Origin: Micromonosporaceae bacterium
Lineage (GTDB): Bacteria; Actinomycetota; Actinomycetes; Mycobacteriales; Micromonosporaceae
NCBI GenBank assembly: GCA_047459215.1
Contig: VSBZ01000004.1
Coordinates: 6,693 to 70,692, forward strand
Direction of reading: 5' to 3'
DNA: 64,000 bases
The notes under the pieces were generated by a model, which was not told where the DNA came from, ran no database searches, and worked only from the letters and a program-made list of their open reading frames with translations. Positions 9,170 to 12,721 of the stretch are shown piece by piece. A program made the position numbers and the translations under genes. Positions within the stretch are counted from its first letter, which is position 1; every line of letters begins with the position of its first letter.

Positions 9170-9427
9170 GTAGTAGCCGAGGACCGCGTCCCCGACCTCG
9201 GACAGGTCGGCGACCGTGGCGGCCGCGGTGGCGAGCTGGTCGAGCGGCTCGTCGACCCGTGGTTGACGCCTCCTGTGTCGGGGCCTCTGACGGGATTGGG
9301 GGCGGCGCCGGTTGCGGTCATCTCTGACAGGCGCGACATGCCCGGGTGCACAGCTGGTGCCATGGCGTGTTGTTCGTGTAACGCAGAGGATGTATGCTCA
9401 TTGGTCGATACGAGGTGGGGAGGCGAC

Positions 9428-9925
9428 GTGTCTGACCCGTACGCACCGGGCTGGCGTCCGGCGTACACCGGTCCGAACCCCGCGCTGGGCGATGTCGGTT
9501 CCGGCCGCGGCTTCGGCGCCGACCTGTACCAGCTGTACAAGGCAGGTCGATCGGAGCTGCCGGCCGCCGCCCAGAAGTTCGCTGAGCTGGCCGGCACGGT
9601 GCACTGGACCCACCAGTTCAGCGCTGCCCTGGCCAGGAACAATTGGCACGGGTACCGCGCCCACCTGCTGTGGGAGCAGCTGCGGGACGATCTGCAGCGT
9701 GCGCTGGCCAACGCGAGCCTGATCCTGGATGAAGCCGGCCGAAGGCTGGTGGAGACCGCCGACCGGTACTCGCGGACCGACGAGGAGGCGGCTGTCAGGA
9801 TGCGCGAGTTGCTGGACCAACAGAGCGAGCCGTCCCCCACCCCGCCCGTGCCACCCCGTCCGCCGATGCCCGAGGACTTTCTGCGGAGCCAGCGGCGGTC
9901 CGACCAGCCGGCACGGATCGCGTAG
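9428..9925 (+). CDS. Small helical protein with W-x-G and C-terminal YxxxD motifs (WXG100-like, putative type VII secretion substrate)
   Basis: GTG 9428 preceded by GAGGTGGGGAGG. 165 aa with a predicted helix-turn-helix centred on W-H-G (nt 9644-9652). YSRTD (nt 9767-9781) is followed by acidic residues and then a Pro-rich tail. The longer ORF 8543..9925 is antisense to the Clp_N gene and was rejected. Confidence 0.6.
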   Translation: MSDPYAPGWRPAYTGPNPALGDVGSGRGFGADLYQLYKAGRSELPAAAQKFAELAGTVHWTHQFSAALARNNWHGYRAHLLWEQLRDDLQRALANASLILDEAGRRLVETADRYSRTDEEAAVRMRELLDQQSEPSPTPPVPPRPPMPEDFLRSQRRSDQPARIA

Positions 9926-9931
9926 TGGAAC

Positions 9932-11110
9932 GTGGCAGAGGACGCCACAATGGTCGACGGACCTCCCGCCACCGCACCTGGACAAGTGAGTCCCACGGTG
10001 CCGTTCGAACGGGCCAGGCTGTGGCGAATGGTGGACGAGATCCGTGGCTACCTGGCGGAGCTGCGCCACATCGACGCCTTCATGCAGCATGTCAATGAGC
10101 TGGGGTCGTTCGATACCCCGTACCCGGGTTGGCCGAGAGGGAAGACGCTCGACGTTGACCCTGGTTTGCACTGGCGGCCAAGCTTCGGTGTGATGACCAT
10201 CACATTGGGTAGAACATTTCCATTCGATGTAGATGTCCGGTACATGGAACCGGTCACGGCTGAGGACATTGAGGCGCTGTCGGCGCGGCTGTGGGAGCAT
10301 GCCCAACGGTGGGCAGATGACAACGTCACCTATCTCAGCCATTACGTGATCAGCCGTATCACCTACCCGGATGAGGCCCGCTATGACGAGATCCGGAACT
10401 ATCTGTATGCCGTGGCCGATCGTCTGAGCTGGTTTCAGGGGAGCGATTTCGGCAAGCTGGGGGACGACCTCGGCGGCTGGAAAGGTGAAGCCGCTGAGAA
10501 TTTCCACGACGAGTTCTACAGCCGCATCAAGGGCGTGGCGCACCACCAGGAGTGGCTGGTAACGAGACTTCTCGCAGCCGCAGCGGTGTTCAAGGGGACG
10601 ATCCGGTACTCCCAGCACGCCTTGATGAACGCTGTCACCTACACCTGGGAGCTGCTACGCGAGCAGCTGCGCCTGCGCCGGGACGCCCGTCGCGGGACCG
10701 AGCTGACCGGGACCGAGCTGACCCGGGTGTTCCTGACCGTGGCGGGCGCCGCCGCCTCCATGCTGGCAAGCTTCTTCAGCAACGGCCTGTCGGCCGCTTT
10801 CTCCCTCGCGCTAGTCGGCGAGGCTTTCGCCGCCACTGCCGCGATGCTGCCCGACAACGCACCCTCGCGTGAGATCAAAGGCTCCACCGCCGTGGAGCTG
10901 TGGAAACAGCTGACCGAGTCGATTGGTGAGATCGAGAGGTTCGCCAGTGACGAGTTTGACGACCTGCATAACCAGCTGAGGCAAGTAGTGAAAGCGATGG
11001 ATGGCGGTGAGGTCGTCATCGCCGTGAAGCGACCGCTGCTGGCCGACGGTGCCTCAGGCGAGACTTTCCACCACCTTACTAGCAGCCGGTATCTCGGGAT
11101 GGTGCGATGA
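9932..11110 (+). CDS. Hypothetical 392-aa protein with internal W-x-G helical hairpin and about 45-aa hydrophobic segment
   Basis: Starts 6 nt after the previous stop, at GTG 9932. An alternative ATG at 9950 has GAGGA 8 nt upstream. GGWKGEAAENFHDEF (WKG at nt 10478-10486) resembles the ESAT-6-type W-x-G turn. The hydrophobic stretch is VFLTVAGAAASMLASFFSNGLSAAFSLALVGEAFAATAAML. Spot GC counts here are 50-58% per 60 nt. Confidence 0.7.
   Translation: MAEDATMVDGPPATAPGQVSPTVPFERARLWRMVDEIRGYLAELRHIDAFMQHVNELGSFDTPYPGWPRGKTLDVDPGLHWRPSFGVMTITLGRTFPFDVDVRYMEPVTAEDIEALSARLWEHAQRWADDNVTYLSHYVISRITYPDEARYDEIRNYLYAVADRLSWFQGSDFGKLGDDLGGWKGEAAENFHDEFYSRIKGVAHHQEWLVTRLLAAAAVFKGTIRYSQHALMNAVTYTWELLREQLRLRRDARRGTELTGTELTRVFLTVAGAAASMLASFFSNGLSAAFSLALVGEAFAATAAMLPDNAPSREIKGSTAVELWKQLTESIGEIERFASDEFDDLHNQLRQVVKAMDGGEVVIAVKRPLLADGASGETFHHLTSSRYLGMVR
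10694..10723 (+). repeat. Perfect 15-bp tandem duplication inside the 392-aa gene
   Basis: GGGACCGAGCTGACC occurs at 10694-10708 and again at 10709-10723. It is in frame and encodes GTELT-GTELT. Confidence 0.9.
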
Positions 11111-11835
11111 GCGCCCGGTGGTCGAAACTGCGCTGCGTAGCCGTGGTATTCGTGATCGCCGCCACTGGGTGCACTCCGGATACCCGACCCAGTCCTTCTC
11201 CATCGCCAGCCACCATCACGGAGACACCGGCGCCCACACCGTCAGCTCAGCCGACAGGCCCCCGCTATGATCCTGTCCCCGCCGGGTTCTGCGATCGCAT
11301 CGATTGGGATGCCATCGCCAGCTCCTTACACATCACCTTGTCGGAAGCCGACTTCGTGGACTGGCGAGCGTCCGATCCATCGTCGTCGCCTGGTGGCGCC
11401 CTGCCCTGGTATGCCGCATGCAAGTTTGAGGTGGTCGCCGAGGCCGGAGAATTTCGCCCAGAGGTGAGCGTCGCTGCCGAGGTCTACGAGTCGGACGCGG
11501 GGGCGCGACAGGAGTTCAGTAACTGGGTTTCGACATACCGAAACGACTTCGGTTACGACTCGGAGGCCATCGACGGATGGTGGGACGAGGGCGCGCGTTC
11601 CGTCCTCTACGACCCTGTCGGTGATCGCCACTGGGCCAGAGTGGTCTACCACCTGCGCCACTACAATCTCCGCCTCGTGGTGATCACGAGTGGTGGCTAT
11701 GAGGTCGAAGGCACGACCGAGGAAGACTTTTTCGGCCTCATCGATGATCTCTCCCTCGGCCTGGTGGAGGCCGTCACCGCCCACCTGCCGTGCCGCCCCT
11801 CACCCGACGCCGCTCCCGTACCGGTCTGCCACTGA
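11107..11835 (+). CDS. Lipoprotein, paralogue 1 (uncharacterised family)
   Basis: ATG 11107 overlaps the upstream stop (ATGA). Signal peptide with lipobox VIAATGC. The mature part has 4 conserved Cys and the C-terminal motif LPCRPSPDAAPVPVCH. Confidence 0.8.
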   Translation: MSARWSKLRCVAVVFVIAATGCTPDTRPSPSPSPATITETPAPTPSAQPTGPRYDPVPAGFCDRIDWDAIASSLHITLSEADFVDWRASDPSSSPGGALPWYAACKFEVVAEAGEFRPEVSVAAEVYESDAGARQEFSNWVSTYRNDFGYDSEAIDGWWDEGARSVLYDPVGDRHWARVVYHLRHYNLRLVVITSGGYEVEGTTEEDFFGLIDDLSLGLVEAVTAHLPCRPSPDAAPVPVCH

Positions 11836-11989
11836 TCCTCCAGGCGCCCGGTACAGCCGGTGTGCCGCACCGCATGGTGGGAACTTGGCCGAAGCATCGT
11901 GGCGGAGGTCAGCGCCACACCGTACGGCGGCTCACCGGTATCGTGGCGGCGACGCACCTCACCGACTGTCACTGTCGTGGGAGAGTCGC

Positions 11990-12721
11990 ATGAGCATCCG
12001 GCGGCCGGCACTGTGTGCTGCGATGGTCGTCCTGGTCATCGCCGCCGCCGCCGGGTGTGGTCCGTCCGCCGGGTCCCGGCGTCCTCCGTCGCCGCCGCCG
12101 AGCACCGCCGCTGCAGCGTCCGCACCGTCGTCCCAGCCGACGGCGGCGCGCTACGACCCCGTTCCCGCCGGGTTCTGCGGCCACGTCGACTGGGATGCCA
12201 TCGGCAGCTCGCTGCGTCTCACGTTCACGAGACCCGTGTTCGTGGACTGGCAGGAGTTCGATCTCCAGCAACCGCCCGGCGGCCCTCAGCCCTGGTTCGC
12301 CACCTGCCAGTTCCGGATGGAAACCGGGGACGGCACGTCCCGGTCGGACCTGAGCGTCGCCGTCGATGTGTACGAGTCGGACGAGTGGGCGCACCGACGG
12401 TTCAGTGACTGGGTGTCAACCTATCGAAGCCGCCCCGACTACGATGCCGCCGCCATCGAGGGATGGTGGGACGAGGCCGTGCGTTTTGCCAGCCGCGCCC
12501 CGCGCGGTGACCGCCTCTGGGCCAGGGTGGTCCACACTATCCGGCACCACAACCTCCACCTCATGGTGCTCATCGACGGCAGCTACGAGGTTGAGGGCGC
12601 CACCGAGGAGGACATCCTCGCCGTCGTCGACGGGCTGTCCCTCGGTCTGGTCGAGGAGGTCACCGCCTACCTGCCGTGCCGCACCTCGCCGGACGCCGCA
12701 CCCGTGCCCGTCTGCCACTGA
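11990..12721 (+). CDS. Lipoprotein, paralogue 2 (uncharacterised family)
   Basis: ATG 11990 preceded by GGGAGAG. Signal peptide with lipobox AAAAGC. It aligns with paralogue 1 over the whole mature region (RYDPVPAGFC, DWDAI, VYESD, WVSTYR, GWWDE, YEVEG, LSLGLVE, LPCRTSPDAAPVPVCH). Confidence 0.8.
   Translation: MSIRRPALCAAMVVLVIAAAAGCGPSAGSRRPPSPPPSTAAAASAPSSQPTAARYDPVPAGFCGHVDWDAIGSSLRLTFTRPVFVDWQEFDLQQPPGGPQPWFATCQFRMETGDGTSRSDLSVAVDVYESDEWAHRRFSDWVSTYRSRPDYDAAAIEGWWDEAVRFASRAPRGDRLWARVVHTIRHHNLHLMVLIDGSYEVEGATEEDILAVVDGLSLGLVEEVTAYLPCRTSPDAAPVPVCH

Follow-up and report, generated by a model that had tools for sequence, protein, structure and literature searches.

A rare, fast-evolving four-gene module from a Micromonosporaceae bacterium that looks like a putatively secreted, membrane-active effector with partner lipoproteins

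The window analyzed here, a stretch of 64,000 nucleotides from a Micromonosporaceae contig (VSBZ01000004.1), carries a rare, fast-evolving module of four same-direction genes (g1 to g4) on the + strand at positions 9428 to 12721. These genes lie exactly where a prior reading of the letters alone (the sequence-only reading) had placed them, and the layout that it described, with a 6-nt gap between g1 and g2, an ATGA overlap of the g2 stop and the g3 start, and a 154-nt gap between g3 and g4, was confirmed at exact coordinates. The features discussed below are as follows.

9170..9427, no strand: divergent intergenic region separating g1 from a Clp_N-domain gene (- strand); presumed to hold the module's promoter
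9428..9925, + strand: g1, 165 aa; GTG start with a GGGGAGG Shine-Dalgarno sequence 5 nt upstream
9644..9652, + strand: W73-H74-G75 of g1, at the hairpin turn that separates two predicted helices
9767..9781, + strand: Y114-S-R-T-D118, the YxxxD motif of g1, which comes straight after helix 2 and is followed by E-E
9932..11110, + strand: g2, 392 aa; large partner in the proposed pair
10478..10516, + strand: W183-K-G-E-A-A-E-N-F-H-D-E-F195 of g2, a WxGxAAxxFxxxF motif where helix 173-182 meets helix 186-251 (66 residues)
10724..10849, + strand: hydrophobic hairpin of g2 (residues 265-306), rich in Ala, Gly, and Ser and containing a single internal Glu; two short lower-confidence helices in AlphaFold2
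11030..11086, + strand: R367-P-L-L-A-D-G-x-x-G-x-x-F-H-H-x-x-S-S385 of g2, C-terminal motif conserved in the g2 family
11107..11835, + strand: g3, 242 aa; lipoprotein with lipobox Cys22; no Pfam or PDB match
11836..11989, no strand: g3-g4 spacer, 154 nt between the lipoprotein paralogues
11990..12721, + strand: g4, 243 aa; lipoprotein paralogue of g3 with lipobox Cys23 and its own GGGAGAG Shine-Dalgarno sequence

Within the intergenic region 9170..9427, in which a sigma-70-type consensus was sought and not found, identity to a related strain (L001) falls from ~96% to ~80%. An alternative g2 start, the ATG at 9950 with a GAGGA Shine-Dalgarno sequence, is equally good or better and yields a product of 386 aa, the length of the JGI gene call. 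In 400-nt windows, the GC content is 59 to 66% across 10000-12000 versus ~72 to 78% in the flanks, and the lowest 1-kb value in the 64 kb (62.1%; window mean, 74.0%; sd, 3.3%) starts at 10001. Over whole genes, only g2 (62.4%) and g3 (64.3%) are low, with g1 and g4 at ~70.5%; GC3 is lowered in all four (0.86, 0.77, 0.74, and 0.86 for g1 to g4 versus 0.94 to 0.98 in eight host genes). The GC dip noticed earlier is present but shallower than the original spot counts had indicated.

The g1 protein starts with a conserved Gly-rich N terminus (GDVGSGxGFGADLYQLYKAGR), continues as a hairpin of two helices, and ends in a Pro-rich tail. Its AlphaFold2 model (pLDDT 78, pTM 0.70) has helices at residues 29 to 71 and 73 to 115, ~43 residues each, with W-H-G at the helix break; this agrees with the prediction of an all-helical protein with W-H-G at the turn, but the tripeptide is no family feature, being confined to g1 and its two closest relatives in an alignment of 13 sequences. 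The YxxxD motif, previously singled out as export-type, directly follows helix 2 and is invariant in 18/18 g1-like proteins (13 aligned relatives plus five further loci). The TIGR03930 model of WXG100 proteins matches g1 over profile positions 7 to 89 of 90 (E = 0.003). When the g1 family profile was compared with the PDB, 7 of the 16 matches were T7SS substrates (four PE25 sequences and three WXG100 proteins), and the YxxxE of PE25 lined up with the YxxxD of g1. Foldseek searches with the g1 model likewise recovered WXG100 proteins as 26 of the 28 top matches (TM-score on target, 0.34 to 0.54), in keeping with the proposed WXG hairpin, although at a subthreshold level, all PDB and Foldseek matches of g1 and g2 having E > 0.001. 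By these three independent tests, each of them subthreshold, g1 resembles the WXG100/PE hairpins.

The g2 protein, which has neither a signal peptide nor a hydrophobic N-terminal signal, founds an unannotated family of 92 clusters, and its AlphaFold2 model (pLDDT 82.7, pTM 0.81) is elongated and helical, with a small β-hairpin at residues 85 to 105. It contains GGWKGEAAENFHDEF, as had been read from the sequence, and the W-x-G...F motif recognized there is conserved across 60 family members: at a mean column identity of 27%, each of the W, G, A, F, and F positions is either invariant or conserved to 90% or more (W183, at least 90%; G185, invariant), and its family-wide form, WxGxAAxxFxxxFY, is near-invariant. 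TIGR03930 matches residues 181 to 200 (E = 0.022), the Thermomonospora curvata Esx protein 4lws_A matches g2 with E = 0.15, and single family members match Pfam WXG100 (E = 0.004) and T7SS_signal (E = 0.003). None of the four proteins has a Pfam match, and the TIGR03930 scores of g1 and g2 are only 17.7 and 15.0 bits against a cutoff of 44.85 bits; the membership in curated families considered for g1 and g2 was thus not borne out at any Pfam or NCBIfam threshold.

The hydrophobic stretch described as lying ~80 residues beyond the W-x-G of g2 corresponds to residues 265 to 306. This membrane-type stretch is conserved: family-wide, the uncharged run starts a median of 78 residues past the WxG motif (IQR, 76 to 80), with a median length of 40 residues and a median peak Kyte-Doolittle hydropathy of 1.83. 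Hbl-L1 (7nmq, E = 0.007) is a weak match to this region of g2. Alignment of g2 with Mycobacterium tuberculosis EspA, for which the query sequence was validated by Pfam only over its first 103 residues, gave an hhalign score of 35.3 versus 15.2 ± 2.5 (maximum, 22.6) for 100 composition-preserving local shuffles; with this partly validated query, the alignment is collinear, placing WxG on WxG and the hydrophobic hairpin on a hydrophobic segment. This suggests a weak similarity of g2 to mycobacterial EspA. No significant fold match for g2 emerged from the PDB or BFVD, and a search of the g2 family for swapped C-terminal toxin domains found none, the architecture being uniform throughout.

The products of g3 and g4 are 56% identical (E = 6e-85), and each combines a lipobox (AATGC and AAAGC, respectively) with a linker rich in Pro, Ser, and Thr and with four other conserved Cys, as befits the secreted-type lipoproteins that they were taken for. 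Comparison of close relatives shows stronger conservation of the lipoprotein (72%) than of g2 (58%), and no lipobox is present in the third gene of one distant locus.

The module has a patchy, rare distribution, and the order g1, g2, exported protein is kept in every related contig, down to ~25% identity (seen in L003, L005, L012, L013, L017, and L018 to L020), mostly with 4-nt overlaps. In strain L001, the island occupies the matching chromosomal site beside a Clp_N gene and includes tandem g2-lipoprotein cassettes; the second g2 lacks ~68 N-terminal residues, starts at a point equivalent to the g3-g4 spacer, and is fused to the initial codons of the lipoprotein gene. These cassettes, the truncated one included, fit the analogy with effector/tandem immunity arrays drawn in the sequence-only reading. 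Between the strains, dN in the island (0.14 to 0.34; omega, 0.32 to 0.61) is 8 to 18 times that of the Clp_N flank (0.018; omega, 0.12).

As to the secretion machinery, an ORF survey of the window found no EccC-sized ORF with host codon bias, which accords with the reported lack of EccB/C/D and MycP genes there; of its other ORFs, the ten largest have housekeeping or regulatory roles, and T7SS core genes were found neither in the window nor on the related contigs (all <7 kb). Micromonospora lupini, of the same family, has 15 T7SS genes (PMC4182475).

The family-wide conservation of YxxxD after the helix-turn-helix of g1 and of WxG in g2 supports the view that the two proteins split an ESX substrate signature between them. 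The module as a whole looks like a previously undescribed membrane-active effector, putatively secreted, with protective or partner lipoproteins. We judge the chances slightly better than even that it encodes an orphan pair of ESX/T7SS substrates, a small YxxxD partner and a large WxG partner able to insert in membranes, accompanied by a cognate lipoprotein for immunity or docking. In such a pair, g1 would be a divergent WXG100/PE/EspC-like helical hairpin bearing its export motif right behind the second helix, and g2 would be the larger partner, with the complementary WxG where two of its helices meet. On the model of EsxB/EsxA, PE/PPE, and EspC/EspA, both proteins might pair in the cytoplasm via their hairpins, be recognized by an EccC ATPase whose gene lies elsewhere, and undergo T7SS-dependent export without a Sec signal, while the ~40-residue hydrophobic hairpin of g2 would be kept packed in an otherwise soluble helical bundle. 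Exported g2 might then insert this hairpin into a membrane and so either form pores in, or depolarize, a competitor or else become anchored in the envelope of the producing cell itself. The lipoproteins (g3, which is translationally coupled, and the paralogous g4) would be displayed on the external surface of the producing cell's membrane and bind g2 there, most likely neutralizing it as immunity proteins and otherwise docking it. The prophage cassettes of M. abscessus described below offer a precedent for such an arrangement (PMC8092301). Counting against this substrate-pair explanation, g2 has its WxG in the middle of the protein (residue 183), whereas that of known WXG-type toxins is N terminal. 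It is further weakened by the failure of any curated model to reach threshold, the uniform g2 architecture, the stronger conservation of the lipoprotein than of g2, the third gene without a lipobox, and the lack of T7SS core genes in the window or on the short related contigs, as well as by the nature of the immunity proteins of membrane-depolarizing T7SS toxins and colicins, which, to our knowledge, are integral membrane proteins rather than lipoproteins.

The same motif and fold evidence would also accommodate a self-directed, nonantagonistic T7SS pair like EspC/EspA or EspF/EspE that builds or regulates a structure of the producer's own envelope, with the lipoprotein as an anchor or assembly partner. 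EspA, described with EspC as a cosecreted dimer stabilized by a dedicated chaperone (PMC6107294), is the sole specific remote similarity of g2, and the lack of variable toxin domains in the uniform g2 family and the better-conserved lipoprotein point the same way. We nevertheless consider this unlikely, given that the tandem cassettes with a truncated copy, the extra lipoprotein paralogue, the elevated dN, the atypical codon usage, and the patchy, rare occurrence are traits of conflict loci rather than of structural genes, and the module has no EspD/EspH-like (YbaB-like) chaperone gene. Less probable still is a T7SS-independent membrane complex, which might serve in envelope stress sensing or remodelling, with g2 as a resident hairpin-anchored protein whose helical domains are cytoplasmic, g1 as its cytoplasmic partner, and the lipoprotein as the extracytoplasmic subunit. 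The run does attain transmembrane-level hydropathy in most family members, no T7SS family threshold was reached, no T7SS genes were found nearby, and no known toxin matched g2 structurally. However, WxG and YxxxD would then be coincidental features of helical proteins, despite two short motifs being invariant or nearly so across divergent families in exactly the structural positions and partner distribution that characterize ESX substrates, and despite WXG100 and PE proteins leading the top matches of g1 in two independent searches. Moreover, AlphaFold2 packs the hydrophobic region inside a confident soluble bundle, and the Ala/Gly/Ser-rich composition with an internal Glu recalls the hairpins of soluble pore-formers.

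A further reading, to which we give very little credence, takes the module for a remnant once carried by a phage, a plasmid, or an integrative element. Prophage cassettes of M. abscessus, which comprise a small ESAT-6-like protein, a ~50-kDa WXG-motif toxin, and an immunity protein (in some cases a lipoprotein), share its three-part layout (PMC8092301); its GC and GC3 are atypical, and transposase-associated (DUF6444) and restriction-type (DUF7008) gene fragments adjoin two distant family members. Against this, tblastn with g2 found no match in 50,697 phage and 72,556 plasmid records, IMG/VR contigs yielded no relative of g1 or g2, PHROGs gave no matches, and neither an integrase nor flanking repeats were found in the island. 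The horizontal acquisition suggested by the sequence-only reading is hence not upheld: these searches revealed no mobile-element hallmarks, and the presence of the island at the same site beside the Clp_N gene in the related strain fits fast local evolution or recombination better than recent acquisition.

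The island comprises four tightly packed genes on metagenome-assembled genome (MAG) DNA close to Natronosporangium MAGs. All four were found, with the spacing proposed for them, exactly where the sequence-only reading had placed them:

Window 9428-9925, + strand: g1, small helical partner (165 aa), with a good Shine-Dalgarno sequence
Window 9932-11110, + strand: g2, large partner (392 aa), starting at GTG 9932 or at ATG 9950
Window 11107-11835, + strand: g3, lipoprotein, in ATGA overlap with g2
Window 11990-12721, + strand: g4, lipoprotein paralogue, with a good Shine-Dalgarno sequence

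A gap of 6 nt separates g1 from g2, g2 and g3 overlap by ATGA, and 154 nt lie between g3 and g4; every product is annotated as "hypothetical." For g2, the ATG at 9950, which has GAGGA seven nucleotides upstream, is at least as plausible a start as the GTG at 9932, and the JGI call of 386 aa begins at this ATG. The NCBI call, MFS8520040.1 (360 aa), begins at Met33 and drops the VPFxR...LWR segment (window 9932-10027), which is conserved in relatives. The 1-kb window from 10001 has 62.1% GC, the lowest of the 64 kb (mean, 74.0%; standard deviation, 3.3%), and 400-nt windows across 10000-12000 range from 59 to 66%. Third-position GC is lowered in all four genes (0.74 to 0.86 versus 0.94 to 0.98 in host genes). 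The dip in GC noted earlier from counts of single lines is therefore real, but it is milder than those counts indicated and at the whole-gene level concerns only g2 and g3. A search of the island for promoter and terminator consensus sequences and for flanking repeats found none.

An AlphaFold2 model of the g1 product (pLDDT 78, pTM 0.70) consists of two 43-residue helices (residues 29 to 71 and 73 to 115) with a break beside W73; the YSRTD motif lies at the end of helix 2 and is followed by a short helix and a Pro-rich tail. Three lines of comparison bear on the identity of this hairpin. The NCBIfam WXG100 model TIGR03930 aligns residues 42 to 122 with positions 7 to 89 of its 90, at 17.7 bits (E = 0.003) against a cutoff of 44.85. 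The g1 family profile gave 16 matches among PDB sequences, all with an E value of >0.1, of which 7 are type VII secretion (T7SS) substrates (four PE25 sequences and three WXG100 proteins), and the YxxxD of g1 falls on the YxxxE of PE25. Foldseek searches with the model placed WXG100 proteins at 26 of the 28 top chains, with every E value at or above 1.1. Because these three independent lines agree, each being individually weak, we suggest that g1 is a WXG100/PE-like hairpin with its export motif in the canonical position.

Only 11 relatives of g1 were recovered among 5.8 billion proteins, with a further 5 taken from related contigs. In all 18 g1-like sequences (13 aligned and 5 from further loci), Y114 and D118 are unchanged, in keeping with the C-terminal YxxxD signal first seen by eye, and the surrounding ADRYxRTDxEAA block is close to invariant. 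The central W-x-G fared differently: the model does place W73-H74-G75 at the turn of a hairpin, as had been predicted, but in the 13-sequence alignment the triplet is confined to g1 and the two sequences closest to it, and it is present in 0 of the 5 further proteins. Nor did the proposed WXG100 assignment pass curated models, with PF06013 finding no match at an E value of ≤1 in g1 and 12 relatives, the TIGR03930 score falling short of its cutoff, and no Pfam model at all recognizing g1. These proteins are 162 to 198 aa long, with N- and C-terminal extensions, rather than the approximately 100 aa of WXG100 proteins. Conservation within the family is highest not in the hairpin but in a Gly-rich N terminus, PxWRPxYTGPDxxLGDVGSGxGFGADLYQLYKAGR (residues 1 to 40; window 9428-9547), which is mostly coil in the model and has no counterpart in WXG100, PE, or EspC proteins.

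The g2 family is larger. A word-indexed search retrieved 4 relatives, and exhaustive phmmer searches of 1.84 billion cluster representatives retrieved 92, nearly all of them full-length proteins of 340 to 390 aa. Across 60 aligned members (27% mean column identity), G185 is invariant and W183, A188, F191, and F195 are conserved in at least 90%, giving the signature WxGxAAxxFxxxFY; a C-terminal motif, RPxLxDGxxGxxFHHxSS, is likewise conserved. An uncharged run with a median length of 40 residues and a median peak hydropathy of 1.83 begins 78 residues past the WxG (interquartile range, 76 to 80), so that the arrangement described from the single sequence, a W-x-G...F motif with a hydrophobic stretch about 80 residues on, holds family-wide. 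No N-terminal signal-like segment was found across the family. The AlphaFold2 model (pLDDT 82.7, pTM 0.81) shows long helices, one β-hairpin (residues 85 to 105), and a final long helix; the WxG lies at the junction of helix 173-182 with a 66-residue helix (186 to 251), and the hydrophobic region (residues 263 to 317) is modeled with lower confidence.

Pfam assigned no family to g2 or to any of 59 relatives, although single relatives touched WXG100 (E = 0.004) and T7SS_signal (E = 0.003). The WxG-region subprofile had a sole match, 4lws_A (E = 0.15), and Foldseek searches of PDB and BFVD with the g2 model yielded nothing with an E value of <0.1. The best PDB match of the family profile was Hbl-L1 (7nmq), over the hairpin and the next helix (E = 0.007). 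Like ClyA, the Hbl and Nhe proteins, and the pore-forming colicins, g2 is an elongated soluble helical bundle with a hydrophobic, Ala/Gly-rich hairpin some 40 residues long, and NheA appears in its Foldseek list (rank 16, E = 1.6); unlike members of one family, however, they share no significant match with g2, with TM scores of about 0.2 and no common sequence family. Since the structure searches gave no match with an E value of <0.1, we did not adopt membership of g2 in the ClyA/Hbl/Nhe or colicin groups despite the Hbl-L1 profile match, and we regard the likeness to α-helical pore-formers as a resemblance in design only. In a separate protein, P0099 (1,391 aa), ten stretches match g2 residues 204 to 263 (E = 4.5e-6); the protein may consist of helical repeats, or the match may be a spurious one between coiled coils.

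The products of g3 and g4 are 56% identical. The N terminus of g3, MSARWSKLRCVAVVFVIAATG-C22, and that of g4, MSIRRPALCAAMVVLVIAAAAG-C23, each comprise a signal peptide and a lipobox Cys, and both proteins continue with a linker rich in Pro, Ser, and Thr and have four more conserved Cys residues, which agrees with their initial description as four-Cys lipoproteins. Just seven relatives were found, and the family profile matched nothing in Pfam or the PDB. The lipobox recurs in the homologues from loci L001, L012, L013, and L015 but not in that from L018, whose third gene (2099-2782) has a 227-aa product bearing a twin-arginine-like signal (KRRDLMQ), only one Cys, and the lipoprotein family's RYxxP motif. 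Because this protein has an export signal without a lipobox, the third component of the module appears to be exported but not always lipid anchored.

The order small YxxxD protein, g2, exported protein is retained on every related contig as far as the contig extends, down to about 25% identity (L003, L005, L012, L013, L017, and L018 to L020) and mostly with 4-nt overlaps; g1-like and g2-like genes are adjacent in every locus seen. Between the window and L014, from a related strain (JGI sample 3300009095), the Clp_N gene flanking g1 upstream is 96% identical, versus 76 to 80% for the island. Nei-Gojobori estimates give dN values of 0.14 to 0.34 and ω values of 0.32 to 0.61 for the island genes but a dN of 0.018 and an ω of 0.12 for the Clp_N flank, on the basis of which the island genes are under selection and yet evolve far faster than their surroundings. 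Locus L001, from the same sample, carries two tandem g2-lipoprotein cassettes, the second g2 being short of about 68 N-terminal residues. There, a chimeric open reading frame (ORF) (1888-2832; Ga0079224_100093014) takes its first codons (MSIRGRCC...) from the 5' end of a g4-like lipoprotein gene, fused to the truncated g2 and followed by its own lipoprotein gene; judging from its makeup, the junction is a recombination scar. The right end of this contig resembles the Clp_N gene, not the MMPL gene that flanks the island beyond g4.

Members of this rare family are known from metagenomes and MAGs alone. Pattern scans for g1 and g2 in 185,579 species-representative genomes, a collection that does not include the source MAG, found no relative, and a metagenome scan added a single locus. 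Related loci have 64 to 72% GC, as expected for actinomycetes, and every contig with a g2 relative is shorter than 7 kb. Assemblies tend to end within or next to the island: a 282-kb contig (L004; ENA ERZ4232226 NODE_17) starts 145 nt before g4, its positions 1-877 corresponding to window 11845-12721; in a same-species MAG, g1 to g3 and g4-MMPL lie on separate contigs; and a 183-kb Natronosporangium contig has a partial MMPL gene only, consistent with the assembly ending there. Such breaks suggest strain-level heterogeneity or a repeat-induced effect. Fragments of other genes adjoin distant copies of the module, namely, one of DUF6444, a transposase-associated domain, in L017 (178-639) and a 207-aa one of DUF7008 in L010 (4568-5191; also in L011 and L012), and these neighbors hint that in other genomes the module sits in variable or defense-island-like regions. 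Searches of viral contigs, phages, and plasmids and of PHROGs found no relatives of the module; since the first three were empty, an origin from a phage or plasmid was dropped as the leading idea, and the island shows no sign of a phage, plasmid, or integrative element.

Substrates of the ESX systems, the actinobacterial T7SSs, follow a rule that splits two motifs between the partners: YxxxD/E after the hairpin of one (EsxB, PE35, EspC, EspF) and WxG in the other (EsxA, PPE68, EspA, EspE) (PMC6107294). The island pair divides the motifs in the same way, with Y114 and D118 of g1 at the end of helix 2 and W183 and G185 of g2 at a helical turn in the AlphaFold2 model, and YxxxD and WxG are the most conserved positions of their respective families. 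Searches of all four proteins against Pfam, NCBIfam, PHROGs, and PADLOC gave nothing above threshold, single-sequence PDB searches were uninformative, and among the comparisons with known families no single similarity is statistically significant or reaches a curated threshold. No EccB/C/D or MycP gene was found on the related contigs, all shorter than 7 kb, or, as had been noted at the outset, in the 64-kb window; within the Micromonosporaceae, Micromonospora lupini has 15 T7SS genes (PMC4182475). The absence of a Sec signal, the shielded hydrophobic hairpin, the translational coupling to a lipoprotein, and the joint duplication of the cassette suggest that g2 is by design a soluble protein able to insert into membranes. 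On the basis of these four features and the division of motifs, we consider it somewhat probable that g1 and g2 form an orphan T7SS effector pair with the neighboring lipoprotein as its cognate partner, a reading in which we infer the presence of a T7SS, secretion, membrane activity, and protection alike. Immunity would be the likeliest role of the lipoprotein, with docking as the alternative. Of the interpretation offered by the sequence-only reading, whose observation is confirmed, the division of motifs and the cassette duplication lend support to a part, but curated thresholds are not reached.

Comparison with known systems places the module near several of them. As in the WXG100 proteins EsxA and EsxB (PF06013, TIGR03930), g1 is predicted to be a two-helix hairpin with W-H-G at the turn, and WXG100 structures dominate its Foldseek and PDB profile lists; the C terminus of CFP-10, YSRADEE in a sequence that Pfam recognizes as PF06013, resembles the YSRTDEE of g1. 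In contrast to WXG100 proteins, however, g1 is 165 aa long, with a conserved extension rich in Gly at the N terminus and a tail rich in Pro, its family does not conserve WxG, and its 17.7 bits lie far below the 44.85-bit cutoff. The PE/PPE pairs share with the module a small partner whose helix 2 ends in YxxxD/E, a larger one with WxG and a variable extension, and the small-then-large gene order, and PE25 is among the best PDB profile matches of g1, with the motifs aligned. They differ in that the module has no PE or PPE Pfam match and no EspG chaperone gene and in that WxG lies near the N terminus of PPE proteins. PE/PPE proteins are not known outside mycobacteria.

In prophage cassettes of Mycobacterium abscessus, a small ESAT-6-like protein and a WXG toxin of roughly 50 kDa come with an immunity protein, in some cassettes a lipoprotein (Dedrick et al. 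2021, PMC8092301). The three-part layout is the same, with a WXG protein of about 40 to 50 kDa and a protective neighbor, predicted in several cases to be a lipoprotein. However, those toxins join an N-terminal WXG domain to diverse recognizable C-terminal toxin domains, whereas the WxG of g2 is central and its C-terminal part is one conserved domain with no known toxin fold; those cassettes also sit at prophage attachment junctions, whereas the module has no phage context. In Firmicutes, the TspA/TsaI loci have tandem nonidentical immunity paralogues shaped by recombination (Garrett et al. 2022, PMC9484751). The LXG toxins of this kind resemble the module in having a helper (there a small WXG100-like protein), a helical targeting region with a membrane-active part, and downstream protective genes as tandem paralogues, and the cassette duplication and chimeric junction of L001 are a further likeness. 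TsaI is a polytopic membrane protein, unlike the lipoproteins g3 and g4, and the LXG toxins belong to a different T7SS branch (T7SSb). The tandem cassettes and the extra paralogue fit the early comparison with Firmicute toxins and their immunity paralogues; neither an LXG domain nor swapped toxin domains are present. Compared with polymorphic toxins in general, g2 has one architecture from end to end, including its C-terminal motif, in place of variable C-terminal domains, but a putative cognate neighbor and extra cassettes are present: wherever the locus is long enough, g2 is followed by the gene of an exported protein, mostly with a 4-nt overlap, and the window has the g4 paralogue and L001 a second, truncated g2 with its own lipoprotein.

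A further comparison is with EspA/EspC. M. tuberculosis EspA is a 392-aa protein in which a WxG precedes a hydrophobic segment rich in Ala and Gly; Pfam assigns residues 21 to 103 of the EspA sequence used here to EspA_EspE (PF18879; E = 2e-27). Alignment of the g2 family profile with this sequence by hhalign placed g2 residues 181 to 333 on EspA residues 53 to 184 (score, 35.3; probability, 40%), with WxG on WxG and the hairpin on the hydrophobic segment. In controls, 100 shuffles in 15-residue windows scored 15.2 ± 2.5 (maximum, 22.6), and the reversed sequence scored 14.5. Since each half of the alignment taken alone is near the shuffle maximum, the signal comes from the collinear combination of both, which is suggestive, but not proof, of homology. 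PF18879 had no direct match in g2 and 59 relatives, with a library that scores true EspA at the E value just given, and PF10824 (EspC) reached at best an E value of 0.09, in two g1 relatives. EspA and EspC are described as a cosecreted dimer (PMC6107294), and like this pair and EspE/EspF, the island has adjacent genes for a small helical YxxxD/E partner and a WxG partner of about 390 aa, in which, as in EspA, an Ala/Gly-rich hydrophobic segment lies about 60 to 80 residues past the WxG. Unlike EspA/EspC, the order is small then large, the WxG of g2 is preceded by about 180 additional residues that include a β-hairpin, g2 has its own RPxLxDG...FHHxSS motif in place of a Gly/Ser-rich C-terminal tail, the partner gene encodes a lipoprotein rather than a YbaB-like chaperone, and the host is a nonmycolate actinomycete.

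Two readings build on this likeness. A self-directed, EspA-like envelope role for the pair would suit the single architecture of the g2 family and a lipoprotein that is well conserved between close relatives; with the duplicated cassettes on the other side, we think such a role unlikely. It is a rather long shot that g1 and g2 are genuine, very distant relatives of EspC/EspA (EspF/EspE) in monoderm Micromonosporaceae and other high-GC actinomycetes, acting as a membrane-inserting T7SS effector neutralized by its cognate lipoprotein. Were that so, EspA-type ESX-1 substrates would descend from an ancient interbacterial family of membrane-active effectors, and the EspA link would provide a simple three-gene model and a practical entry to the function of EspA and EspE. 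Returning to the orphan effector pair with its lipoprotein, the module is best filed as a variant of an ESX substrate pair with a protective lipoprotein, made up of three unannotated protein families.

Very few T7SS effectors are known outside mycobacteria and Firmicutes. Here, a compact, conserved three-gene unit obeys the ESX motif rule without Pfam or NCBIfam annotation, and g2 has a confidently predicted fold that matches nothing solved. Should g2 prove to be secreted and membrane active, with the lipoprotein conferring immunity, it would represent a new effector class for actinobacterial T7SSs; should it not be secreted, one would still have to explain why YxxxD and WxG are so strictly conserved in this setting.

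Upstream of g1, the minus-strand ORF at 8051-9169 encodes two Clp_N repeats within the N-terminal ~200 residues (Pfam E = 3e-29). Over its final ~230 nt the ORF overlaps an opposite-strand glyoxalase-family gene (7921-8283), and its GC by codon position is atypical (0.78/0.69/0.80); the true gene is probably shorter than this ORF or frameshifted. A 61-nt direct repeat within it (8710/8935) reflects the two Clp_N repeats.
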